11,988 nucleotides of DNA from Escherichia coli (GTDB lineage: Bacteria; Pseudomonadota; Gammaproteobacteria; Enterobacterales; Enterobacteriaceae), in the NCBI RefSeq assembly GCF_041248615.1, contig NZ_CP158424.1; one strand, 5' to 3'. The translations under genes were made by a program, and so were the position numbers. Below the pieces are notes generated by a model. It worked only from the letters and a program-made list of their open reading frames with translations, was not told where the DNA came from and made no database searches. Below, piece by piece: positions 1,395 through 11,988 of this stretch (within the stretch, counting starts at the first letter, position 1; the number at the start of each line of letters is the position of its first letter).

Positions 1395-1545
1395 TGGATG
1401 CATAGGTATGCATAAGGTTAAAATTTATCAGGCGCGATCGCGGTAGTTTTTCGGGGGGGTTGTTGCCATTTTTACCTGTCTGCTGCCGTGATTGCGCTGA
1501 ATGCATTTCAGCGGTGCGTATAATTAAGGGATTATGGTAAATCCA
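1395..1545 (+). other. cer-like XerCD site-specific recombination site (plasmid multimer resolution) with upstream accessory region
   Basis: Core 1513-1542 GGTGCGTATAA-TTAAGGGA-TTATGGTAAAT matches the ColE1 cer XerC-arm/central-region/XerD-arm organisation as I recall it (one mismatch in the XerC arm). The about 120 bp upstream resembles cer accessory sequence (PepA/ArgR region). Accessory boundary is approximate. Confidence 0.75.
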
Positions 1546-1546
1546 C

Positions 1547-1966
1547 TTACTGTCTTCCCTCGTAGCCATCGAGATAAACCGCAGAAATCGTCTCAGCCAG
1601 CAGCCTGGATTTTTTCGGGGTAAGGTCTTTGCTGCGGTAATCAGTACCCGCAAATTGAGTTGTGCCCCGGAGTGAGTTTAAAAATTCCTGGCTGTGAAAC
1701 TGCTGAATGCGTTGCTGCACATCACTCCGTGATTTTCCTGTCGCTTTATCCTTTGCTCCCATATCCCAGAACTGCCGGAAAAAAGGCACCATCATTCGTG
1801 TTGTGTCGGCCTTCTGGGTGGAAAAGTTAGGATCAAAACCATCGTCTGATGCATAAACGTAATGCCGGGTATGTTGTTCCACACTGCCCTTTGGCGTGCA
1901 GGCTGTCAGGACCGTTGCCGCTGTCAGCAGGGCGATAAGATACAGTGTGCCGCCGGAACGTCTCAT
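1547..1966 (-). CDS. Putative lipoprotein (139 aa), function unknown
   Basis: ATG at 1966 with AAGGAG 7 nt upstream (complement of 1974-1979). N-terminus MRRSGGTLYLIALLTAATVLTAC is a signal peptide with lipobox LTAC. Hydrophilic mature part. Lies immediately downstream of the HTH gene on the same strand. Confidence 0.75.
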   Translation of the reverse strand: MRRSGGTLYLIALLTAATVLTACTPKGSVEQHTRHYVYASDDGFDPNFSTQKADTTRMMVPFFRQFWDMGAKDKATGKSRSDVQQRIQQFHSQEFLNSLRGTTQFAGTDYRSKDLTPKKSRLLAETISAVYLDGYEGRQ

Positions 1967-2049
1967 GAGTGTCTCCTTACCTTTAAATCTTTGTACTCAG
2001 TGACTTATATTTAACCGCTGACTATCTTATCATCACTTGCAGCCGGTGC

Positions 2050-2487
2050 TCACCGGCTGAACAGTCTGGCCCAGAATCCCCGTTTTTTTTCCTGCTCCAG
2101 TGCCTGCCTGAGCTGCTCTATCTCTTTATGTAGCTGTTCCCGTTCGGCTTCTTGGCGCCGGCGTTCCGTATCCTGTGCCTGTTTGTCCTCAAGCATCAGT
2201 GTCAGGCATTGTTTCAGCTCATTCAGCTCCCGGAGAATGCGTTCTGTCTGCTGATCATGTGGATTTTCTGCCTGTCCCACAGTGTGCCTTTCTTGTGTCT
2301 CATTTTGCTTTAATTCGCCGTATGCCCGGATCAGTTCACTGGTTTCAAACTCCCTTCGTCCGTCCTGGCTGGTACGGTAACTGACAAGACCTGAGCGCAT
2401 ATCACGGTAAAACTGTGAACGCGATCTTCCAGTCATTTTCAGTGCGTCCTGGAGTGTGTGCCATGCCATAAAGTTACAGTGTCCCAT
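2050..2487 (-). CDS. Putative DNA-binding protein: AlpA/Xis-like HTH N-terminus with C-terminal coiled coil
   Basis: Segment TLQDALKMTGRSRSQFYRDMRSG has a helix-turn-helix pattern (xTGxSRSxxYR) seen in AlpA/excisionase-type HTH proteins; C-terminal 60 aa is charged heptad-like (EAEREQLHKEIEQLRQALEQEKK). Start uncertain: ATG 2487 or ATG 2469, neither with a strong SD. Divergent from the colicin promoter. Confidence 0.65.
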   Translation of the reverse strand: MGHCNFMAWHTLQDALKMTGRSRSQFYRDMRSGLVSYRTSQDGRREFETSELIRAYGELKQNETQERHTVGQAENPHDQQTERILRELNELKQCLTLMLEDKQAQDTERRRQEAEREQLHKEIEQLRQALEQEKKRGFWARLFSR

Positions 2488-2635
2488 AGGTGTCTCATCT
2501 CATGGTTTCAGTAAAACATAATGAGGTCTGAGAACGGTAATGTTTGCGCCGGTTTTTGTGGTATCCGGCGGGAATAGCGCGTGGTGTGAGAGACTGTTTT
2601 TTTGATCGTTTTCACAAAAATGGAAGTCCACAGTC

Positions 2636-2664
2636 TTGACAGGGAAAATGCAGCGGCGTAGCTT
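2636..2664 (+). promoter_or_regulatory. Colicin operon sigma70 promoter
   Basis: TTGACA (2636-2641), 17-bp spacer, TAGCTT (2659-2664). Arrangement and surrounding sequence closely resemble the colicin E1 promoter region as recalled. Confidence 0.75.
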
Positions 2665-2669
2665 TTATA

Positions 2670-2700
2670 CTGTACATAAAACCAGTGGTTATGTGTACAG
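2670..2700 (+). promoter_or_regulatory. Dual overlapping LexA (SOS) operators
   Basis: Box 1 CTGTACATAAAACCAG (2670-2685) fits CTG-N10-CAG; box 2 GTGGTTATGTGTACAG (2685-2700) overlaps by 1 nt. This tandem arrangement immediately downstream of the -10 is typical of colicin promoters. Confidence 0.85.
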
Positions 2701-2745
2701 TATTTGTTTTTAATGGTTTGTTTTAAAAGTCAAAGAGGAATGAAT

Positions 2746-4602
2746 ATGCCGGGGTTTAATTACGGTGGGTATGGTGACGGTACTGGCTGGAGTTCTGAAA
2801 GTGGTGGTCCAGCTCCAGGCGGTGGTATGCATGGAAATAGTGGAGGCCAGCGCGGAGATAACGCAAACAGTAGCAATTCTGTGAGTCAGCAGATTTCTGC
2901 CATTCAGAATGATCAGAAACTTAAACAGAAAGTGGTGAATATGCTGATTGCTGCGAGAAAAATGAATCCTGAAGCAAAAATGATTCTGGGAAGTATTGCT
3001 CCTTCTGGTGTTATGCAGGTCACCATTGAGGGGGTAACCTCCACTCAGGCCAGGCAGCTTGGTTTGGGAGGGCTGGTCATGGGATATAACGCTTCTGGTG
3101 TTATTGGGGCTGTGGGCGAAATAGACACCGGTCACCGCCTTAATGCATCAGGAGCAAGTACTCCCGGAAGCGAAACTTCTGTGGAGAGTTTTGTGAACGG
3201 ACAGAAACCAGCCGGAGAATGGCATGCTGTGGCGAAGGACAGCTGGACAGGGGCTGGTCCAGTGAATGTAGGGCTGGTTAATAACGCCATCAAAAGTGTC
3301 CGGATTATCAAAAAAGGCTATGTGACGGGCGTTCTCACGCCAGAAGAGGTGATGAATAAAGCAGAGTACAAAGCAATGCGGCAGGCTTTCGATTCCCTTC
3401 CACTGGCAAAACAGGGAGAGGCTGTCAGACAGATTGTTGCTGCTTGGAGTCTGGCATATCAGGATTTTCCGGTAAATCTGAAAAAAGAGATGGGGCGTGT
3501 CACTGAACGGATTGTTGATGCTATTAACCTGGCGCTCATTCTTAATCAGACAGAGTCCCGTTTGTCGGAATCACAAAAGAATGTTGATGTAGCGAACCAG
3601 ATTATCAGTGATACAGTAAAAGCTATTAATGATGTAAATAAGAAAATAGCAGAAAAACGAAATCAGCAGGTATCACTGACTGATTTGATGAATAAAAAAC
3701 AAAAAGAGGTCGAAGATCTTAAAAAGATATTCAAAAATCACTCTTATCACCGTATTCGTGATGCCCAGAGGGAATATGATGATGCCCGAAATAAATATGC
3801 TTTACTGGCCAGTGATATTAATGCGCTGCAGGCACAGGTTTCCGGACTGACGGCAAGGAAACAGCAGGCAGAACAGAACAAGGCAGCAGCAGAAAAAGCA
3901 AAGGCAGATGCAGCGGCGAAAGCTGCAGCAGAAAAAGCGGCTGCTGAAGCGAAAGCAAAGGCTGAAGCTGAAAAAGCCAGAAAGGAAGCAGAGGAAAAAG
4001 CAAATGACGAGAAGGCTGTTCTGACAAAAGCCAGTGAAATTATCATCAGTGTTGGTGATAAGGCTGGGGAGTATCTGGGTGATAAATATAAAGTTCTTTC
4101 TCGTGAGATAGCAGATAATATCAAAAACTTTCAGGGCAAAACGATTCGTAGTTATGATGAGGCGATGGCTTCTGTCAATAAACTGATGGCTAATCCTGAT
4201 CTTAAAATTAATGCCGCCGACAGGGATGCAATTGTGAATGCTTGGAAAGCATTTGATGCAGAGGATATGGGGAATAAGTTTGCCGCGCTGGGTAAGACGT
4301 TTAAAGCCGCAGATTATATGATGAAGGCAAACAACGTCCGGGAGAAGAGTATCGAGGGGTATCAGACCGGAAACTGGGGGCCGCTGATGCTGGAGATTGA
4401 GTCCTGGGTATTGAGTGGTATTGCTTCTGCTGTGGCGCTATCATTTTTCTCAGTCGCTGTTGGTTCATTATTTATTACAGCGGGCGTGTCTGTAACGGCT
4501 GTGGGACTTATGGGCATTATTTTTGCTGGCTTTATCGGTGCGCTGATTGATGATGATTTTGTTGATAAGTTAAATAACGAAATTATTCGCCCTGCGTATT
4601 AA
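2746..4602 (+). CDS. Pore-forming colicin, colicin A/U/Y family (618 aa)
   Basis: Track ORF 2704-4602 begins at a TTG; best start is ATG 2746 (GAGG 2735-2738, 7-nt spacer). N-terminus MPGFNYGGYGDGTGWSSE plus Gly-rich segment matches the colicin A translocation-domain start as I recall it. Ala/Lys/Glu-rich helical linker. C-terminal about 200 aa (NFQGKTIRSYDEAMAS ... NWGPLMLEIESWVLSGIAS ... hydrophobic helical hairpin ... NNEIIRPAY) matches the colicin A-subgroup pore-forming domain. Length is close to colicin U/Y. Confidence 0.93.
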   Translation: MPGFNYGGYGDGTGWSSESGGPAPGGGMHGNSGGQRGDNANSSNSVSQQISAIQNDQKLKQKVVNMLIAARKMNPEAKMILGSIAPSGVMQVTIEGVTSTQARQLGLGGLVMGYNASGVIGAVGEIDTGHRLNASGASTPGSETSVESFVNGQKPAGEWHAVAKDSWTGAGPVNVGLVNNAIKSVRIIKKGYVTGVLTPEEVMNKAEYKAMRQAFDSLPLAKQGEAVRQIVAAWSLAYQDFPVNLKKEMGRVTERIVDAINLALILNQTESRLSESQKNVDVANQIISDTVKAINDVNKKIAEKRNQQVSLTDLMNKKQKEVEDLKKIFKNHSYHRIRDAQREYDDARNKYALLASDINALQAQVSGLTARKQQAEQNKAAAEKAKADAAAKAAAEKAAAEAKAKAEAEKARKEAEEKANDEKAVLTKASEIIISVGDKAGEYLGDKYKVLSREIADNIKNFQGKTIRSYDEAMASVNKLMANPDLKINAADRDAIVNAWKAFDAEDMGNKFAALGKTFKAADYMMKANNVREKSIEGYQTGNWGPLMLEIESWVLSGIASAVALSFFSVAVGSLFITAGVSVTAVGLMGIIFAGFIGALIDDDFVDKLNNEIIRPAY

Positions 4603-4611
4603 TTGAGAGTC

Positions 4612-4641
4612 GAAAGGTAGTCAGGAGGACTACCTTTCTTT
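4612..4641. terminator. Bidirectional hairpin terminator between convergent colicin and immunity genes
   Basis: Perfect 11-bp stem GAAAGGTAGTC (4612-4622) / loop AGGAG / GACTACCTTTC (4628-4638) followed by TTT. The immunity stop codon (4630-4632) lies inside the stem. Confidence 0.7.
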
Positions 4642-5154
4642 CCAGAGTTTATATGCTATTACTGGTTGGAGGCAGAGGGCGTAAGTTATGAAAAAAGAGC
4701 AATAATACAGGCAGATATAAAAGATAAGCAAAGTAAGATCGTTCTCAGACATCAATCGAACAGGTCTTCCCGATGTTGTTAACTCGAAGTTATGCCACAA
4801 GAAAAAATAAGCATAAAAAATACACAAAAAGGGGGACAGTATACAAGCTGTTATGATTTTTTTTCTGTCTGTTATTTTGGTGGTTCTTGTGTGTTTGAAT
4901 AGCATGATGAAAGCTATAAATGCTAATAATGGTGCGCTCTTACCGTAGATATCCATCACCTTTGTCATCACAGGGTTATATGAAGAAATTACTGAAGGTA
5001 TATTTTGAGTATTATCGAAAATGATGCGGATTAAATAGAAGTTGGGGTTTGATGTATAAGTTATAAAAATAATAATTAATGGGATTATACCCGCGAAAGT
5101 AATCAAAAAAAGCATCCTGTTTAAATCTTTGTTGTAAGTGTACTCTTTTTGCAT
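4630..5154 (-). CDS. Colicin immunity protein, A-type (four-TM inner-membrane protein, 174 aa)
   Basis: Antisense to the colicin gene, as in pore-forming colicin operons. Several hydrophobic segments. Motifs SSYNPVMTKVMDIY and NFELTTSGRPVRLM match the colicin A immunity protein (Cai) as recalled. GGGAG 10 nt upstream of ATG 5154. Confidence 0.9.
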   Translation of the reverse strand: MQKEYTYNKDLNRMLFLITFAGIIPLIIIFITYTSNPNFYLIRIIFDNTQNIPSVISSYNPVMTKVMDIYGKSAPLLAFIAFIMLFKHTRTTKITDRKKIITACILSPFLCIFYAYFFLWHNFELTTSGRPVRLMSENDLTLLIFYICLYYCSFFITYALCLQPVIAYKLWKER

Positions 5155-5273
5155 TGGTATAATACTCCCGGTTTTTCATTGTTATTAATTTAGTTGTTGA
5201 TATGTATAAGCATATCATGCTGTGCGAGTAATGGTCACCCTAATATTAGGGGTATGAGTTAATGAGGGGATAT

Positions 5274-5414
5274 ATGAAAATGATATTATCAGGAGGGATG
5301 CTTGTCTTGATGGCTTTGCTATCAGGCTGCCAGGCTAATTATATTCGCGATGTTCAGGGAGGGACCGTCGCACCATCCTCCTCTTCTGAACTGACGGGAA
5401 TCGCGGTTCAGTAG
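5274..5414 (+). CDS. Colicin lysis (bacteriocin release) lipoprotein, 46 aa
   Basis: Not in the ORF track (below length cutoff). ATG 5274 with GAGGGG 3 nt upstream. [46 protein letters not shown]: signal peptide, lipobox LSGC, and mature start [14 protein letters not shown] nearly identical to the colicin A lysis protein as recalled. Confidence 0.88.
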
Positions 5415-5422
5415 AAAAGATC

Positions 5423-5449
5423 AAAGGATCTTCTTGAGATCCTTTTTTT
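5423..5449 (+). terminator. Rho-independent terminator after the lysis gene
   Basis: AAAGGATCT (5423-5431) / loop tcttg / AGATCCTTT (5437-5445) with T-run 5443-5449. Same element is found upstream of the RNA II promoter in pMB1-type replicons. Confidence 0.7.
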
Positions 5450-5462
5450 CTGCGCGTAATCT
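5434..5462 (+). promoter_or_regulatory. RNA II (replication primer) promoter
   Basis: TTGAGA (5434-5439), 17-bp spacer, TAATCT (5457-5462); same sequence as the pMB1/ColE1 RNA II promoter. Confidence 0.75.
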
Positions 5463-5469
5463 GCTGCTT

Positions 5470-5579
5470 GCAAACAAAAAAACCACCGCTACCAACGGTG
5501 GTTTGTTTGCCGGATCAAGAGCTACCAACTCTTTTTCCGAAGGTAACTGGCTTGGAGGAGCACAGTCACCAAAACCTGT
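5470..5579 (-). ncRNA. RNAI: RNA I, antisense copy-number and incompatibility regulator
   Basis: Complement of the first about 110 nt of RNA II. Stem-loop 1 (AACCACCGCTACCAACGGTGGTT) is conserved with pMB1; distal stem-loop sequence (5553-5579) diverges. Ends are approximate. Confidence 0.8.
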
Positions 5580-5585
5580 CTTTTC

Positions 5586-5615
5586 AGTTTAGCCTTAACC
5601 GGCTCATAACTTCAA
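5586..5615 (-). promoter_or_regulatory. Putative RNA I promoter
   Basis: On the minus strand: TTGAAG (complement of 5610-5615), 18-bp spacer, TAAACT (complement of 5586-5591), placing the start near 5579. Same layout as the pMB1 RNA I promoter. Confidence 0.5.
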
Positions 5616-5989
5616 GACCAACTCCTCTAAATCAGTTACCAGTGGCTGCTGCCAGTGGCGCTTTGTCGTGTCTTACCGGGTTGGACTCAAGACGATAGTT
5701 ACCGGATAAGGCGCAGCGGTCGGGCTGAACGGGGGGTTCGTGCACACAGCCCAGCTTGGAGCGAACGACCTACACCGAACTGAGATACCAACAGCGTGAG
5801 CTATGAGAAAGCGCCACGCTTCCCGAAGGGAGAAAGGCGGACAGGTATCCGGTAAACGGCAGGGTCGGAACAGGAGAGCGCACGAGGGAGCTTCCAGGGG
5901 GAAACGCCTGGTATCTTTATAGTCCTGTCGGGTTTCGCCACCTCTGACTTGAGCGTCAATTTTTGTGATGCTCGTCAGGGGGGCGGAGC

Positions 5990-6005
5990 CTATGGAAAAA
6001 CGCCA
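5990..6005 (+). other. ori: Origin of replication (RNA-to-DNA transition point), ColE1 type
   Basis: TATGGAAAAACGCCAGC corresponds to the pMB1 primer cleavage and DNA start site. Exact nucleotide not determinable by eye. Confidence 0.65.
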
Positions 6006-6224
6006 GCGGCGCGGCCTTTCGTTGCCCTTTGCCTTTTTGCTCACATGTTCTTTCCGGCCTTATCCCCTGATTCTGTGGATAACCGTATTACTGCCTTTGA
6101 GTGAGCTGGCACCGCTCGCCGCAGCCGAACGACCGAGCGTAGCGAGTCAGTGAGCGAGGAAGCGGAAGAGCGTCGGAAGTTGCATTTTCTCCTTACGCAT
6201 CTGTGCGGCATTTCACATCGGCTA

Positions 6225-6330
6225 TGGTGCACTTTTCATACAATCCGCACTGATGCCGCATGACTAAGCCAGTATACACTCCGCTATCGCTACGTGACTG
6301 GGTCATGGCTGCGCCCCGACACCCGCTAAC
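6225..6330. other. oriT: bom / oriT region (origin of transfer for mobilisation)
   Basis: Near-identity to the pBR322 bom region as recalled (...TAAGCCAGTATACACTCCGCTATCGCTACGTGACTGGGTCATGGCTGCGCCCCGACACC...). Located between ori and rop as in ColE1. Nick site not assigned. Confidence 0.6.
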
Positions 6331-6414
6331 ACCCGCTGAAGCGCCCTGATGGGCTTGTCTGCTCCCGGCATCTGCTCACTGACAAACTGTGACCGTCTCC
6401 GGGAGCTGCATGTG

Positions 6415-6606
6415 TCAGAGGTTTTCACCGTCATCCCCGAAACGTGCGAGGCAACTGCGGTAAAGCTCATCGGCGTGGTCGTGAAGCGATTCACAGATGT
6501 CTGCCTGTTCATCCGCGTCCAGTTCGTTGAGCTTCTCCAGCAGCGTTAATGTCTGGCTTCTGATAAAGCGGGCCATGTTAAGGGCAGTTTTTTCCTGTTT
6601 AGTCAC
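6415..6606 (-). CDS. rop: Rop/Rom, RNA I-RNA II pairing modulator (63 aa)
   Basis: GTG start at 6606 with GGAGG upstream; VTKQEKTALNMARFIRSQTLTLLEKLNELDADEQADICESLHDHADELYRSCLARFGDDGENL is the ColE1/pBR322 Rop sequence as recalled. The track ORF extends further upstream without an initiator. Confidence 0.93.
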   Translation of the reverse strand: MTKQEKTALNMARFIRSQTLTLLEKLNELDADEQADICESLHDHADELYRSCLARFGDDGENL

Positions 6607-6637
6607 TGATGCCTCCGTGTAAGGGGGATTTCTGTTC

Positions 6638-6994
6638 ATGGGGGTAATGATACCGATGAAACGCGAGAGGATGCTCACGATACGGGTTACTGATGATGAA
6701 CATGCCCGGTTACTGGAACGCTGTGAGGGTAAACAACTGGCGGTATGGATGCGGCGGGTCTGCCTGGGTGAGCCGGTTGCCCGTTCCGGGAAGCTGCCGA
6801 CACTGGCACCGCCGTTACTGCGTCAGCTGGCCGCCATCGGGAATAACCTGAATCAGACAGCGAGGAAGGTGAACAGCGGGCAGTGGTCTTCCGGTGACCG
6901 GGTTCAGGTAGTGGCCGCACTGATGGCCATCGGGGAGGAGCTGCGCCGGCTGCGTCTGGCCGTCAGGGAACAGGGGGCGCGGGATGATAGTTAA
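6638..6994 (+). CDS. mbeC: Mobilisation protein MbeC/MobC (relaxosome accessory protein)
   Basis: MLTIRVTDDEHARLLERCEGKQLAVWMRR... matches the MobC N-terminal remnant retained in pBR322 and the ColE1 MbeC family. Divergent from rop. Start could be ATG 6638, 6656 or 6671; 6638 has the best SD spacing. Confidence 0.85.
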   Translation: MGVMIPMKRERMLTIRVTDDEHARLLERCEGKQLAVWMRRVCLGEPVARSGKLPTLAPPLLRQLAAIGNNLNQTARKVNSGQWSSGDRVQVVAALMAIGEELRRLRLAVREQGARDDS

Positions 6995-8549
6995 GTTTCA
7001 TGCCAGGGGAAAAGGTGGTGGCAGTGGTCCGGTTGATTACCTGCTGGGAAGGGAGCGTAACCGGGAAGGGGCAACGGTGCTTCAGGGTAATCCGGAAGAA
7101 GTCCGGGAACTCATCGATGCCACGCCATTTGCGAAGAAATACACGTCAGGTGTTCTGTCGTTCGCGGAGAAGGAGCTGCCGCCGGGAGGACGTGAAAAAG
7201 TGATGGCGAGCTTTGAGCGTGTACTGATGCCCGGTCTCGAAAAAAATCAGTACAGCATCCTGTGGGTGGAGCACCAGGACAAGGGACGGCTTGAGCTGAA
7301 TTTTGTCATTCCGAACATGGAGCTACAGAGCGGAAAACGCCTCCAGCCGTACTACGACCGGGCAGACAGGCCGAGAATTGATGCCTGGCAGACGCTGGTT
7401 AATCACCATTACGGGCTGCATGACCCCAACGCCCCGGAGAACCGCCGGACGCTGACTCTCCCTGATAACCTGCCGGAAACGAAACAGGCGCTTGCTGAGA
7501 GCGTCACACGCGGGATAGACGCTCTTTATCATGTCGGGGAGATAAAAGGCCGTCAGGATGTGATTCAGGCGCTCACAGAGGCGGGGCTTGAAGTGGTCAG
7601 AGTGACGCGAAGCAGCATCAGTATTGCAGACCCGAACGGCGGGAAGAATATCAGGCTGAAAGGAGCATTCTATGAGCAATCTTTTACAGACGGGCGCGGA
7701 GTTCGAGAAAAAGCTGAAAGAGAGAGCCGCATCTACAGAGAAAATGCTGAACGACGAGTTCAGGAAGCTCGAAGAATCTGTAAACAGGGAACTGACCTCA
7801 AACGAATCTTTAATCAGGAACGCTATCAACGCCCATACAGCAGCCCTGAAAGAACTTCTGGAGAGGTATCAGAAAACGACCGTCAGCACGATGGACACAC
7901 ACTGGCAAACCGTGCTGAAAATGAGCGTGAAACGCTGGCTGTGGCTGATTATCGTCTCAGTGCTGATGTTTGCCACGACCGGGAGTCTGCTGTGGTACCA
8001 GGGCATGAAGATAAACGCAAACATGAATATTCTCCGCGAGCAGAAAGAGAGTCTGGAGAAGCTGAACGCGAAGACATGGGGCGTGCGTTATCACGAGGAC
8101 AGCAACGGACGTTTTCTGGTGTTGCCGAAGGGGATGAAAGCCGAAACGCACTGGACGGAGGACAACGGCAAACTGAACGCAGTGAGACTGGTACAGGAGT
8201 GACAGAGCATGACGGAGCTGGAAAAACATTTGCTGAACGCCTTAGAGCAACTGCAACAGGACTATATGCAGCGGCTGAACGAATGGGAGAGCGCCTTCGT
8301 GGAATTGCAGAAGATGTTTTCGCTTACGCAACGGGACAACGCGATGCTGAACGAGCGGGTCATGCAGTTGAGTCAGCAGGTGCAGCACTTGAGCGAGCGG
8401 ACAGAACGCTTGAGCCAGTTATACAGCGAGAACAGGAGATAAGGGACGAACGGCTGATACAGGAACGCGAACATGAGTTATCCCTGGAGCGTGAGCGCCA
8501 TCTGGAAATACAGGAACGGACACTGGATGGCCCGTCGCTGGGATGGTAA
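6984..8549 (+). CDS. mbeA: Relaxase MbeA/MobA (ColE1-type, 521 aa)
   Basis: N-terminus MIVKFHARGKGGGSGPVDYLLG... is characteristic of ColE1-family relaxases; start overlaps the mbeC stop; C-terminal half is Arg/Glu-rich as in MbeA. Confidence 0.92.
   Translation: MIVKFHARGKGGGSGPVDYLLGRERNREGATVLQGNPEEVRELIDATPFAKKYTSGVLSFAEKELPPGGREKVMASFERVLMPGLEKNQYSILWVEHQDKGRLELNFVIPNMELQSGKRLQPYYDRADRPRIDAWQTLVNHHYGLHDPNAPENRRTLTLPDNLPETKQALAESVTRGIDALYHVGEIKGRQDVIQALTEAGLEVVRVTRSSISIADPNGGKNIRLKGAFYEQSFTDGRGVREKAERESRIYRENAERRVQEARRICKQGTDLKRIFNQERYQRPYSSPERTSGEVSENDRQHDGHTLANRAENERETLAVADYRLSADVCHDRESAVVPGHEDKRKHEYSPRAERESGEAEREDMGRALSRGQQRTFSGVAEGDESRNALDGGQRQTERSETGTGVTEHDGAGKTFAERLRATATGLYAAAERMGERLRGIAEDVFAYATGQRDAERAGHAVESAGAALERADRTLEPVIQREQEIRDERLIQEREHELSLERERHLEIQERTLDGPSLGW
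7672..8202 (+). CDS. mbeB: MbeB/MobB mobilisation protein, nested in an alternative frame of mbeA
   Basis: ATG 7672 with AGGAG upstream; 176 aa with a predicted TM segment (WLWLIIVSVLMFATTGSLLW). Nested arrangement matches ColE1 mbeB. Confidence 0.75.
   Translation: MSNLLQTGAEFEKKLKERAASTEKMLNDEFRKLEESVNRELTSNESLIRNAINAHTAALKELLERYQKTTVSTMDTHWQTVLKMSVKRWLWLIIVSVLMFATTGSLLWYQGMKINANMNILREQKESLEKLNAKTWGVRYHEDSNGRFLVLPKGMKAETHWTEDNGKLNAVRLVQE
8209..8442 (+). CDS. mbeD: MbeD/MobD (77 aa coiled-coil protein), nested within mbeA
   Basis: ATG 8209 with AGGAG 9 nt upstream; helical, Gln/Leu-rich sequence; position directly after mbeB as in ColE1. Confidence 0.7.
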   Translation: MTELEKHLLNALEQLQQDYMQRLNEWESAFVELQKMFSLTQRDNAMLNERVMQLSQQVQHLSERTERLSQLYSENRR

Positions 8550-8769: not shown

Positions 8770-9498
8770 TAGACGCCAGAATGCGTTTAATGCTTCTTCT
8801 GATGGTATCAGAGAGGAGCAGCTTGAGTTATTCCTGTTGGCCACAGAGCGTAATTATCTCCTTTTCAGATCCACACGGGGATACGTCAGAGTAGGAACTG
8901 AGCAAGGATTACTGAAAGATACTTTTTGCCAGAAAAAAATCCTCATACATGATGAGGATAAAGTCTTAAAGGTCCATTCTATGGAGTGTCGGATTGAAAA
9001 ATTTCTCCGGATGATATCCTTCACAGTTTAAATGTGATTTCAACCATAAGTTTTTTATGGATTTTGTTAAATAAAAAAGAATTGAGTCGTGTTTCTGATA
9101 TGTCTTAATATAATAAGTGAACAGTTATAAAATAATTGTGTTATATTTATTGTGAGTTTGATGTTATGTTCTGCATAAATAACTGTAGTTTAGAATATTA
9201 TTCTTTTATATTTATAGCTGTGAGATGATAAATTATAAGTGTTCTTTGTGCTATAAAGAACCCCCCGTATAAGGGGGGGAAAGATGGGTTTACTTCTTTT
9301 TAGTCCATGCCCTGGTGAGCTACATGAAGCTCGACACTACAGTAAAAATTTGGCAGTTTTTTTGAACTTTACGCAAGCAATTTATTTACATTGTAAAGAA
9401 AACCCCCTCAATTTGCGTATTACCGTGAAGGAGATCGGTGAGTAACATCGATGGAGATCGGTTCGTGTCACTTTCACAGAACCGTTTTTAAATTACCT

Positions 9499-10248
9499 TC
9501 ACTGATCTCCTTCGGTCAACGGAGATTGTATTTTCCGCATTGATTCTCCTTTAAGTTCGATCTTGATACTGCCATGAACCAGTCGATCTAGGATGGCATC
9601 CGCATGTGTGGAGTCTCCGATCATTTTGTACCAGTTTTCCACCGGCAACTGGCTCACTACGATGATTGAGCCTCGTTGGTACATCAGATCCACTATTTCC
9701 AGCAGGTCGCTACGCTGTTCTGATGAGAGAGGTTCCAGCCCCCAGTCATCCAGAAGCAGCAGATCGCTATTATTCAGCCTGGTCAAAAGTTTGCTGTATC
9801 TTCCATCAGCATGCCCCTGATAGCACTGTTCCATCAGCGCTTTAAGGCGATAATAGTAGACCTTGTATCCCTGTCGGCAGGCATTATGACCAAGTGCACA
9901 TGCCAGGAACGTTTTACCGCTGCCGGTGGCCCCGGTCAGTAAAATATTTTGTTTCAGGGTTAACCAGTTTCCCTGACTGAGTGAACGGATGAGGGCCCTG
10001 TCCAGCCCTCTATTGTTACGATAATCCAGCTTTGATAACTCAGCATTAAGTCTGAACCGTGCATGTTTGATCAGACGCTCTGCCTTCCTGTTTTCACGGC
10101 AGGTTAGTTCTTCTGCTGTCAGTAATGACAGGCGTTCTTCGAAGCCCAGCTCCTGGTATGTGCCCGGCTGAGCAAGTTGCTTTTTAAGCGCATCACGGAA
10201 GCCGGTGAGTTTAAGTGCGGTCAGTTGTTCGTAAAGATGATTCATCAT
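9499..10248 (-). CDS. istB: IstB-like ATPase helper of IS21-family transposition (249 aa)
   Basis: Walker A motif GATGSGKT and Walker B-like LLLLDDWG; size and position directly downstream of istA. Confidence 0.92.
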   Translation of the reverse strand: MMNHLYEQLTALKLTGFRDALKKQLAQPGTYQELGFEERLSLLTAEELTCRENRKAERLIKHARFRLNAELSKLDYRNNRGLDRALIRSLSQGNWLTLKQNILLTGATGSGKTFLACALGHNACRQGYKVYYYRLKALMEQCYQGHADGRYSKLLTRLNNSDLLLLDDWGLEPLSSEQRSDLLEIVDLMYQRGSIIVVSQLPVENWYKMIGDSTHADAILDRLVHGSIKIELKGESMRKIQSPLTEGDQ

Positions 10249-10259
10249 TGGATCCCGTA

Positions 10260-11801
10260 TCAGTGGTAATACTCACTGCCGCGTACGTTTTCGTGTTCCA
10301 TCGTGGATAACAGATCTGGTTTTGGATCCTGAACAGGTTGTTTATCCAGACCTTTTTCCAGGATCGATTTAATACCTGACAGACGCCATACCTTTGTTTT
10401 CAGAGCTCTTGCACATGCTGCATTAAGTCTGGCTTTACTGTATTTTTTATGAAGGTTCAGGAGTCCAAGGCAGAAGCGATAGCTTTGTTCCGGATGTGGA
10501 CGAGAGTTCAGTATATGAAGCACATAACTATGAGTTTCACTGCCTATGTGCCCCGCCCATTCCAGAAGACGCTCTGGCGTCCAGGTGGCATGCTGTCGAT
10601 GAGCTTCAGGCATGTGCTCGTTGCGGGTACTGTAGCCATAAGTACGCTTGCGCGGGTGCACAGCAACCTCCTGCCCCTGATTGAAGAGTCTTACCAGTTC
10701 TCCGGAGATCCATGCTTCCAGTTGCTGGCCTAACAGCGAACATGGAACCGAGTAGTAATGTTTGTCGATTTCCACGTGGTAATCGGCATGAACTCTGACT
10801 TTCTTCACCAGGGTGTAACTGTAACTGGCTTCAGGAAGAGGCTTCAGTGCGGGTTTATCAAGCTGGATGAAGAGTTCTGCACGTGAATAACCCAACTTCT
10901 GCATTATTTTGTTATTCAGTCTTTCCAGCAACTCCCGAATGCGCTGATTAAGCGATGCAAGGCTGTAGAAGATCTCATGCCTGATTCGGGCCATGATCCA
11001 GCGTTCAACAACCTGAACGCCAACTTCAGCTTTGGCTTTATCTTTCGGTTTACGTGGCCGCGCAGGCAAAACTGCGACATTATAATGCTCAAGCATCTGC
11101 TGGTAGGTAGGGTTAACGTCAGGATCATACTTACATGCCCTGGATGTGGCGCTTTTCAGATTGTCCGGAACAACAAGTTCAGGAACGCCACCCAACCACT
11201 GGAAGCAGCGAACATGACTCATCACCCAGTCTTCAAGCTGCTGAGACCAGGTGGCCTCTGCCCATGTGTAACTTGATGCCCCGAGAACAGCTACGATGAC
11301 CTGAGCAGTTCTTATTTCTCCGGTCTCAGGGTCGGTAACGCCAACGGTAGGTCCACAGTAATCAACGAAAAGTTTTTCGCCAGCTTTATGTACCTGACGC
11401 ATTGATGGTGAAGTGGTTTTGAGCCATTCACGGTACATCCGGCAGTAATGGTTATAGCTGTAAAAACCGCCTGGATTACGCTCACAGTATTCTTCCCAGA
11501 GTAGCTGCAGCGTCACGCATTTATTACGCAGTTCCCGGTGTACTGTAGCCCAGTCAGGCAGAGAGTGCTTCTTCATCTTAACCTGGGTCTGAAGGAACGC
11601 ATGTTTTAGTTTTGTATCATCCCATCCTGTAGGTAAGGGCCACTGCTTTATGCCAAGTTGAGCCGCCCGATTAGCATATCTGGATACAACGGAAGGGGAG
11701 ATTGCAAGACTACGACCAATTTGTCGATGGCTGAGTCCAACACCGTATTTAAGCCTAAGAATTTCTTTAAGTTTTCTCATAGAAATTGGAACTGTTGGCA
11801 T
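10260..11801 (-). CDS. istA: IstA transposase, IS21 family (513 aa)
   Basis: N-terminal HTH (LKEILRLKYGVGLSHRQIGRSLAISPSVVSRY) followed by a long catalytic region; AGGA 5 nt upstream of ATG 11801; 11-bp gap to istB. Confidence 0.92.
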   Translation of the reverse strand: MPTVPISMRKLKEILRLKYGVGLSHRQIGRSLAISPSVVSRYANRAAQLGIKQWPLPTGWDDTKLKHAFLQTQVKMKKHSLPDWATVHRELRNKCVTLQLLWEEYCERNPGGFYSYNHYCRMYREWLKTTSPSMRQVHKAGEKLFVDYCGPTVGVTDPETGEIRTAQVIVAVLGASSYTWAEATWSQQLEDWVMSHVRCFQWLGGVPELVVPDNLKSATSRACKYDPDVNPTYQQMLEHYNVAVLPARPRKPKDKAKAEVGVQVVERWIMARIRHEIFYSLASLNQRIRELLERLNNKIMQKLGYSRAELFIQLDKPALKPLPEASYSYTLVKKVRVHADYHVEIDKHYYSVPCSLLGQQLEAWISGELVRLFNQGQEVAVHPRKRTYGYSTRNEHMPEAHRQHATWTPERLLEWAGHIGSETHSYVLHILNSRPHPEQSYRFCLGLLNLHKKYSKARLNAACARALKTKVWRLSGIKSILEKGLDKQPVQDPKPDLLSTMEHENVRGSEYYH

Positions 11802-11988
11802 AGGTATCCTTTACCGGAATGGCAAAAGATACAGATCAACACACCTGTGAAGTTCCAATAACATTGATGGAGATCACTGAATAACAAAATGAGTCAAAAG
11901 TGATCTCCATCGATGTTATTCAGCGATCTGTTCAAATGTTATTACCCGATCTCGATGGAAGTTATTGAGTGATCTCCTTTCATGAAAA

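Follow-up and report, generated by a model that had tools for sequence, protein, structure and literature searches.

A small ColE1-type plasmid of Escherichia coli with a complete colicin R operon (cra-cri-crl)

Which colicin is encoded at positions 2636-5449 of the window (the whole stretch of E. coli DNA analyzed here, 11,988 nt) is the question raised by a first-pass annotation of this locus, which described a complete, apparently intact, LexA-box-bearing pore-forming operon of the colicin A/U/Y family and suggested that it might be colicin U/Y or a new mosaic. Every element listed in that description was found (Table 1), and the entire segment proved identical at 2,814 of 2,814 nt, in one piece and with full coverage, to plasmid pColR (KF137578, E. 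coli ROAR029). LT599828 was likewise 100% identical over 2,814 nt, and both records are annotated cra/cri/crl; the whole window is an exact rotation of plasmid p14408_3 (LT599828; E. coli NRZ14408), which is already counted among colicin R plasmids in the literature. Exact-sequence look-up identified Cri as UniProt T2D3L3 ("Colicin R immunity protein") and Crl as UniProt T2D2Z6, and the exact Cra protein (P0001) is present on 154 contigs. The best explanation of the evidence as a whole, and one we hold to be almost certainly correct, is that a small ColE1-type plasmid here carries cra-cri-crl, the operon of colicin R. The operon is real, complete, and intact, but it is already known, and it is not new because it is identical to the published pColR sequence. 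Colicin R is said to have been first described by Rendueles et al. in 2014 in ISME J 8:1275, with pColR as the type colicin R plasmid.

The proposal of novelty thus fell to full-length identity (100%) with a known colicin. Y-like, U-like, and private segments are demonstrably combined in the operon, as a new and undescribed mosaic colicin would require, but the published pColR operon is the same mosaic base for base and the exact operon proteins recur across hundreds of public contigs, where they are named colicin R, so that an undescribed colicin is vanishingly improbable. What stands of the original proposal is that the operon is a mosaic of the U/Y type; it is neither colicin U nor colicin Y, and this mosaic has already been published as colicin R.

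Table 1. Features of the colicin R operon and its flanks, with positions in the window.
Feature	Position	Strand	Basis and remarks
-35 hexamer of the cra promoter, TTGACA (perfect)	2636..2641	+	Direct reading; invariant in colicin R, U, Y, and MP1-ColY plasmids
Candidate -10 hexamer, TAGCTT	2659..2664	+	17-nt spacer; 3/6 consensus match; placed by spacing to the -35
LexA box 1, CTGTACATAAAACCAG	2670..2685	+	Exact CTG-N10-CAG; conserved in colicin U and Y plasmids
LexA box 2, GTGGTTATGTGTACAG	2685..2700	+	Direct reading; GTG-N10-CAG, one mismatch in left half-site
Shine-Dalgarno of cra, AAAGAGGA	2732..2739	+	GAGG ends 7 nt before ATG 2746; invariant in four-plasmid alignment
cra, colicin R structural gene, 618 aa + stop	2746..4602	+	ORF from ATG 2746 to stop 4602; 100% DNA identity to pColR
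Gly-rich N-terminal translocation segment, residues 1-50, colicin A-type TolB box	2746..2895	+	PDB 3iax_B
Ala/Lys/Glu-rich linker, residues 376-420, between receptor-binding and pore domains	3871..4005	+	Composition
Direct repeat copy 1, 14 nt, GCAGCAGAAAAAGC	3886..3899	+	Exact copy
Direct repeat copy 2, GCAGCAGAAAAAGC	3925..3938	+	39 nt (13 codons) downstream of copy 1
Pore-forming domain, residues 415-611	3988..4578	+	Pfam Colicin PF01024
Hydrophobic helical hairpin, residues 566-605, colicin R-specific	4441..4560	+	Hydropathy peaks at residues 568 and 592
11-bp stem-loop between convergent cra and cri, overlapping the cri stop codon	4612..4638		Fold energies on both strands
cri, colicin R immunity gene, 174 aa	4630..5154	-	Pfam Colicin_im PF03857, E 6.5e-42; antisense between cra and crl
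Promoter-like site directly upstream of cri, TTAATA-18-TATTAT	5159..5188	-	Consensus match only
crl, lysis (release) lipoprotein, 46 aa, lipobox LSGC	5274..5414	+	Pfam Lysis_col PF02402, E 1.4e-23
Intrinsic terminator at operon end, 10-bp stem + T7	5423..5452	+	-18.2 kcal/mol, z -3.9

Between pColR and the window plasmid the operon is the same and the backbone alone differs: pColR is 5.9 kb in size, whereas the 12-kb window plasmid has a mob region and carries an ISEc12 insertion, and the exc region upstream of the operon (1491-2181) is only 87% identical to that of pColR. An operon that is present but non-functional, for example through silencing or decay following the ISEc12 insertion and the changes in the mob region, might be suspected on a plasmid that, like p14408_3, carries an IS21-family element and has an mbeA fragmented in the RefSeq annotation. 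However, the IS lies at 9499-11801, more than 4 kb from the operon, and the 2,814 nt of the operon, promoter and terminator included, are without difference from the type sequence, with all three ORFs intact; we therefore consider a silenced or decayed operon highly improbable. Nothing in the sequence counts against reading this segment as the colicin R operon, and its functions (killing, SOS induction, receptor, and immunity) are predicted from the sequence.

The promoter and dual LexA boxes of the earlier description were both located (Table 1). A scan for sigma-70 consensus promoters missed the cra promoter, the best -10 (3/6) being below threshold, and a 20-mer LexA consensus search allowing up to 3 mismatches gave no match, so the LexA boxes were identified by reading the sequence directly and by searching for the CTG-N10-CAG core. 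The two boxes lie downstream of the promoter and share one base, and box 2 shows no variation in either half-site among the R, U, and Y plasmids. Only 2 positions from the -35 to the ATG differ between the window and the MP1 colicin Y promoter, which has two overlapping SOS boxes, and active MP1 colicin increased ∼1000-fold after UV (PMC7284606). As in established colicin biology, LexA would repress cra-crl until its cleavage was triggered by DNA damage. RefSeq starts the cra product at 2713 and gives it 629 aa, but that start is not conserved: the colicin U plasmid has ACG in place of the RefSeq ATG, and a 1-nt indel separates it from the MPGF frame. In this comparison the RefSeq start is probably 11 codons too long.

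The cra ORF contains no frameshift and no internal stop, and the earlier description of a 618-aa colicin with a colicin A-like N-terminus and a pore-forming C-terminus agrees with the domain matches. At the N-terminus, residues 1-45 align with residues 1-47 of colicin A in the TolB-box chain 3iax_B (E 3e-12), and the C-terminus, in addition to its PF01024 match, aligns with the structures of colicins B, A, S4, and N (1rh1, 1col, 3few, 1a87) with E values of 1e-66 to 1e-99. By homology, Cra is a three-part toxin whose C-terminal part is predicted to be an A-type ten-helix pore domain. The A-type group (colicins A, B, N, S4, U, Y, and R) is recognizable here in the PF01024 pore domain with its hairpin and in the antisense Colicin_im gene, and the organization of an SOS-regulated group A operon in the two overlapping LexA boxes and the lipobox-bearing lysis gene co-oriented downstream of cra.

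Colicin A (Citrobacter freundii pColA; PDB 1col, 3iax) has in common with Cra the TolB-box N-terminus and a pore domain alignable over its full length (E 1e-84), as well as the Pfam Colicin_im immunity family to which Cri belongs, but, compared via its PDB chains, it has no match to the central receptor-binding domain of Cra. Colicin B (PDB 1rh1) has the closest solved pore domain (E 7.5e-99), with homology that begins directly after the Ala/Lys/Glu linker, and shows no homology to Cra upstream of residue 399. Colicin B is a TonB-dependent group B colicin, the N-terminal and FepA-binding domains of which are unrelated. Some plasmids that share the pore-domain DNA are annotated with a "tRNase domain" colicin; a nuclease/pore chimera was considered and rejected, as this colicin resembles colicin B, has a pore domain of the A type, and is accompanied by an immunity gene of the Cui type, and its name is an annotation artefact.

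The central receptor-binding part, left unassigned in the first-pass annotation, can now be assigned to colicin U, as residues 251-416 are 100% identical to those of O24681. Colicin U (Shigella boydii, UniProt O24681; cua-cui-cul) has the same architecture as colicin R, and its toxin is 93.7% identical overall and 99.3% identical over residues 417-565. Colicin Y (pCol-Let, NC_002487; cya-cyi-cyl) also has the same architecture, with a toxin that is 89.3% identical; across the upstream region, the promoter, and the first 50 residues the two are either identical or 97-100% identical at the DNA level, whereas central residues 251-380 of colicin Y are only 79% identical to colicin R. Over residues 1-50, Cra is 100% identical to colicin Y and 78% identical to colicin U. 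Because residues 51-416 are 98-100% identical to colicin U, the colicin U uptake route is expected for colicin R. Colicin A uses BtuB, whereas colicin U uses OmpA as its receptor, together with OmpF and TolABQR (PMC9558359). Extrapolating from colicin U, Cra would bind OmpA/LPS and cross via OmpF and TolABQR, after which its hairpin would insert into the inner membrane and form a voltage-gated depolarising pore.

With a toxin this close to both relatives, a centre identical to U, an N-terminus identical to Y, and a lysis protein one residue from that of Y, the operon might be taken for colicin U or Y itself, in a trivial allele of the same immunity group. Strict identity fails in both cases, with 39 differences from colicin U in 619 aligned positions, 23 of them within the hairpin, and 66 differences from colicin Y in 618 residues. 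The hairpin is only 42.5% identical to that of colicin U and 50% to that of colicin Y, with a flank that is 99% identical, and the immunity protein Cri matches Cui at 118/174 positions (68%) and Cyi at 129/174 (74%; 65/75 in the N-terminal 75 residues and 64/99 in residues 76-174). A-type immunity proteins recognise the hydrophobic hairpin of the toxin. The lysis protein has 45 aa in colicin U and 46 aa in colicin R; the colicin Y lysis gene is 96% identical to crl. As the operon, moreover, has 100% identity to that of colicin R, a colicin with a name of its own, we regard a mere U or Y allele as very unlikely.

Informative sites place the colicin R operon in a series of runs: Y-like at 2355-3438, U-like at 3468-4452 (>120 sites), private from 4454 to ∼4950, Y-like again at 4959-5414 (through the lysis gene), and U-like at 5420-5749, with R/U/Y breakpoints at 3438-3468, ∼4452, ∼4950, and 5414-5420. 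The private block encodes the toxin's hydrophobic hairpin together with the C-terminal portion of Cri; against U and Y its dS is 1.1-2.6 with dN/dS <1, compared to a dS of 0.04-0.05 against U in the flanks. On the pattern of these sites, the operon reads as a recombinant in which a private cassette of ∼500 bp, of ancient divergence, is flanked by segments of Y-like and U-like type. The convergent cra and cri genes abut at their 3' ends, and the cassette extends across both of these ends, so that the toxin hairpin would be co-inherited with immunity specificity. The saturated dS with dN/dS <1 suggests that R specificity did not arise from recent positive selection on a U/Y background. We give an even chance to a scenario in which the cassette was acquired in one recombination import, as an old hairpin-plus-immunity module from an unsampled lineage, and repeat-mediated deletions gave rise to the linker-length variants.

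The 45-residue linker that joins the receptor-binding domain to the pore domain (21 Ala, 10 Lys, and 9 Glu) had been proposed as a recombination junction between domains on account of its direct repeats. These repeats are real: GCAGCAGAAAAAGC occurs in exactly 2 copies in the window, against 0.01 expected by chance. Tandem Repeats Finder detected no real tandem array in the linker, and in an NCBIfam scan of the three proteins the Cra linker gave only sub-threshold coiled-coil-type matches (SMC, TolA), with none for Cri or Crl. Among 14 family members the linker is the sole internal site of in-frame length variation, and one colicin R variant (P0065) is without exactly the 13 codons between the repeats. 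The proposed junction is thus weakly supported, in that the repeats coincide with in-frame deletion variants but the R/U/Y breakpoints lie elsewhere. As the junction of the R/U/Y mosaic itself the Ala/Lys/Glu repeat was rejected, colicin R being U-like on both sides of the linker.

Downstream of cra, the antisense four-TM immunity gene predicted earlier bears up in the PF03857 match of Cri and in its four hydrophobic peaks, with centres near residues 23, 78, 108, and 150. Promoter-like sites in the region are no more numerous than in shuffled sequences, which makes the site upstream of cri weak evidence for a promoter. Expressed from its own promoter, Cri, an inner-membrane protein, would recognise the cognate hairpin inside the membrane and so protect the producer. 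The stem-loop between cra and cri folds at -18.4 kcal/mol on the + strand (z -3.3) and -17.2 on the - strand (z -4.2) and is likely a partial or bidirectional terminator. Because the + strand lacks a strong T-run after it, read-through to crl may be allowed, and such read-through would express the lysis lipoprotein, leading to release of colicin from a fraction of producers. The 46-aa lysis lipoprotein gene, missed by the ORF track and noticed on first reading, is borne out by its PF02402 match and LSGC lipobox. The terminator that closes the operon adjoins a ColE1-type replication region, with RNAI at 5474-5577 on the - strand.

Beyond correct annotation, the importance of this locus is small: it duplicates a published operon exactly, and its organization is the textbook one for a group A pore-forming colicin. 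Colicin R is of some applied interest, as it is reported to be made in biofilms and to have higher activity on biofilm bacteria (PMC4845594). The operon also illustrates how new immunity groups are assembled, with a co-inherited hairpin/immunity cassette set amid exchangeable translocation, receptor, and lysis segments.

The colicin operon at 2636-5449 is real and complete, but it is not new: every base matches the known colicin R operon. Megablast searches of plasmid and E. coli collections returned two records that match the full 2,814 bases at 100%, pColR from E. coli ROAR029 (NZ_KF137578; source impala, Gabon) and p14408_3 from E. coli NRZ14408 (NZ_LT599828). Each carries annotations for cra (as the pore-forming bacteriocin colicin R), for cri, and for crl. 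The first-pass annotation had proposed colicin U/Y or a new mosaic, while holding that near-identity to one known colicin would make it a known colicin; because the operon is identical to annotated colicin R records, it is the latter instead. Rotated so that record position 11420 becomes position 1, LT599828 reproduces the entire window exactly, the window being complete plasmid p14408_3. Cri has the exact sequence of UniProt T2D3L3 ("Colicin R immunity protein"), and Crl that of T2D2Z6. The exact 618-aa colicin is present on 154 public contigs and the 629-aa RefSeq form on a further 87, with a Salmonella Enteritidis record among the names. Colicin R was reportedly first described by Rendueles et al. 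in 2014 (ISME J 8:1275). Secondary literature gives ROAR029 as its producer and describes activity preferentially against sessile cells (PMC4845594).

Every operon part recognized in the first pass was located, from the promoter -35 and dual LexA boxes through the three ORFs, and a terminator closes the unit (see table). The predicted colicin A-like N-terminus is borne out by a match of residues 1-45 to the TolB-box peptide of colicin A (3iax, E 3e-12), and the pore-forming C-terminus by Pfam (residues 415-611, Colicin PF01024) and by solved structures, the last 200 residues aligning over their whole length with the pore domains of colicins B, A, S4, and N (E 1e-66 to 1e-99). Hydropathy peaks at residues 568 and 592 mark the two helices of the hydrophobic hairpin. 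The antisense gene encodes a Colicin_im protein (PF03857, E 6.5e-42) with the four hydrophobic segments expected of it, and the small lipoprotein is a Lysis_col member (PF02402, E 1.4e-23).

Features of the colicin R operon and its plasmid surroundings (window coordinates)
Feature	Position	Strand	Remarks
Exc2-family lipoprotein gene (exc2)	1547-1966	-	
Entry exclusion protein 1 gene (exc1)	2050-2487	-	
-35 hexamer TTGACA	2636-2641	+	perfect; raw sequence
LexA box 1, CTGTACATAAAACCAG	2670-2685	+	raw sequence and motif match
LexA box 2, GTGGTTATGTGTACAG	2685-2700	+	one base common to both boxes
Shine-Dalgarno of cra, AAAGAGGA	2732-2739	+	
cra ORF	ATG 2746 to stop 4602	+	618 aa, unbroken
Stem-loop	4612-4638	both	11 bp; both strands fold
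cri ORF	4630-5154	antisense	174 aa
crl ORF	5274-5414	+	46 aa, LSGC lipobox
Terminal stem-loop	5423-5452		T7 run; operon end
RNAI of ColE1-type replicon	5474-5577	-	Rfam RF00106, 66.9 bits; downstream of operon terminator
ISEc12	9499-11801	-	istA 513 aa, istB 249 aa; multiple terminal inverted repeats

RefSeq (PGAP) makes cra 629 aa long by starting it at ATG 2713, a codon that reads ACG in the colicin U plasmid. ATG 2740 is likewise replaced in that plasmid, and a 1-nt indel parts both positions from the MPGF frame. Only ATG 2746, with its Shine-Dalgarno AAAGAGGA, is conserved in all four plasmids compared, and for this reason the 618-aa product of the first-pass annotation is the more likely model. 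Colicins A and U likewise begin MPGFNYGG. The RefSeq start is thus probably misannotated.

Overall, colicin R shares 93.7% identity with colicin U (P0078, UniProt O24681) and 89.3% with colicin Y of pCol-Let. In the domain-wise comparison that the first pass had recommended, the differences from both were strongly clustered along the protein. Identity to U and Y, respectively, was 78% and 100% in the Gly-rich N-terminus (residues 1-50), 98% and 98% in residues 51-250, 100% and 79-92% in the central domain and linker (251-416), 99.3% and 93.3% in the pore domain ahead of the hairpin (417-565), and 42.5% and 50% in the hydrophobic hairpin (566-605). By this alignment the central part, which the first pass could not place, is that of colicin U. 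Since the receptor of colicin U is OmpA and its import goes via OmpF and TolABQR (PMC9558359), the same route would be the natural expectation for colicin R. Cri shares 68% identity with Cui and 74% with Cyi, the immunity proteins of colicins U and Y, its N-terminal 75 residues being Y-like (65/75), and Crl differs from the colicin Y lysis protein at one residue.

The window was aligned to the colicin U plasmid pBS512_7 and to pCol-Let, and sites differing between U and Y were scored. Colicin R DNA is Y-like at 2355-3438, U-like at 3468-4452 (three exceptions among >120 informative sites), unlike either from 4454 to about 4950, Y-like again at 4959-5414, and U-like in the replication region (5420-5749). 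Because the private block takes in the hairpin-encoding 3' end of cra together with codons 76-174 of convergent cri, its 3' two-thirds, both partners in toxin-immunity recognition lie on one contiguous cassette. Its synonymous divergence from U and Y is saturated: Nei-Gojobori dS between R and U reaches 1.1 for the hairpin and 1.4 for cri codons 76-174 (2.6 for those codons between R and Y), as compared to 0.04-0.05 in flanking cra (R vs U), with dN/dS below 1 throughout. Among these three sequences, such a pattern would be better explained by recombination bringing in an old divergent specificity module than by positive selection acting recently on a U-like gene.

The Ala/Lys/Glu-rich linker had been suggested as a recombination junction. 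Its repeats are real, as the 14-mer GCAGCAGAAAAAGC has exactly two copies in the window (3886 and 3925, vs 0.01 expected by chance), spaced 39 nt or 13 codons apart within a degenerate periodic repeat (15/24/39 nt). In the alignment with the U and Y plasmids, however, no R/U/Y mosaic junction falls in the linker; to either side of it colicins R and U are identical, and a junction of this colicin there is unsupported. The linker (3871-4005) is instead the sole internal length-variable site among 14 U/Y/R family members (variants P0065, P0072, P0097, P0102, P0116, and P0093), with in-frame deletions of 7-19 residues and an insertion of 2 residues; in P0065 (605 aa), a variant of colicin R, precisely the 13 codons that separate the two repeat copies are missing. 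Together with the start of colicin B-type homology directly past the linker and a 17-residue linker deletion in the E. albertii relative, these indels mark it, at the sequence level, as a domain boundary and repeat-mediated indel hotspot.

P0077 (615 aa, ENA contig), a U/R-like colicin, is near-identical to R to about residue 470 and colicin B-like from there through the hairpin and C-terminus (ending ...KFVDELNHKIIK), a chimera joined within the pore domain. Plasmid pE600029_8 (NZ_JBREQN010000005, 1469-3574) encodes a 514-aa colicin B-like protein whose A-type pore domain shares 70% identity with that of R, and also has an immunity gene of the Cui type; the PGAP name of the protein, "colicin-like bacteriocin tRNase domain-containing protein," is probably due to N-terminal domains common to colicins B and D. 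The E. albertii colicin (609 aa; pESA134_2, a 176-kb large conjugative IncF/IncI plasmid, 2393-4222) is of U/Y/R type in its N-terminal and central region (DNA about 84% identical) but diverges more in its pore domain, and the PLSDB table shows no immunity or lysis gene beside it.

The cra promoter was not picked up by a consensus scan; with a 17-nt spacer, its best -10 candidate (TAGCTT) agrees with consensus at only 3/6 positions. The R, U, and Y plasmids all conserve the -35, the two LexA boxes, and the Shine-Dalgarno, and from -35 to ATG only 2 positions differ from the MP1 colicin Y promoter, which has two overlapping SOS boxes (PMC7284606). UV-exposed MP1 lysate gave clear killing zones up to 10^3 dilution, and unexposed lysate was active undiluted only (PMC7284606). 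The predicted SOS control of this operon is thus well supported by homology.

As in pCol-Let and pBS512_7, exc2 and exc1 lie directly upstream of the colicin promoter. The operon terminator is followed by a ColE1-type replicon (RNAI and rop), the mob region, and ISEc12 (IS21-family), which has repeats beside it at 9428-9480 and 11902-11979 and is absent from pColR. That plasmid (5.9 kb) is 99.2% identical to 2182-6652 and 87% identical to 1491-2181, and lacks the remainder. The mbeA relaxase ORF (6984-8549, +) is unbroken at 521 aa; RefSeq splits it into pseudogene fragments at 6984-7827 and 8187-8549, placing mbeB between the two in another frame, probably an annotation artefact from a divergent middle part. 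A 114-nt "replication initiation protein" CDS (5632-5745, -), inside the ColE1-type RNAII/origin and adjoining RNAI, is likely a spurious protein call.

Beyond a known operon, the analysis yields a probable start-codon error, a breakpoint map, a cassette of saturated divergence, and a linker indel hotspot, by-products that are only mildly informative.
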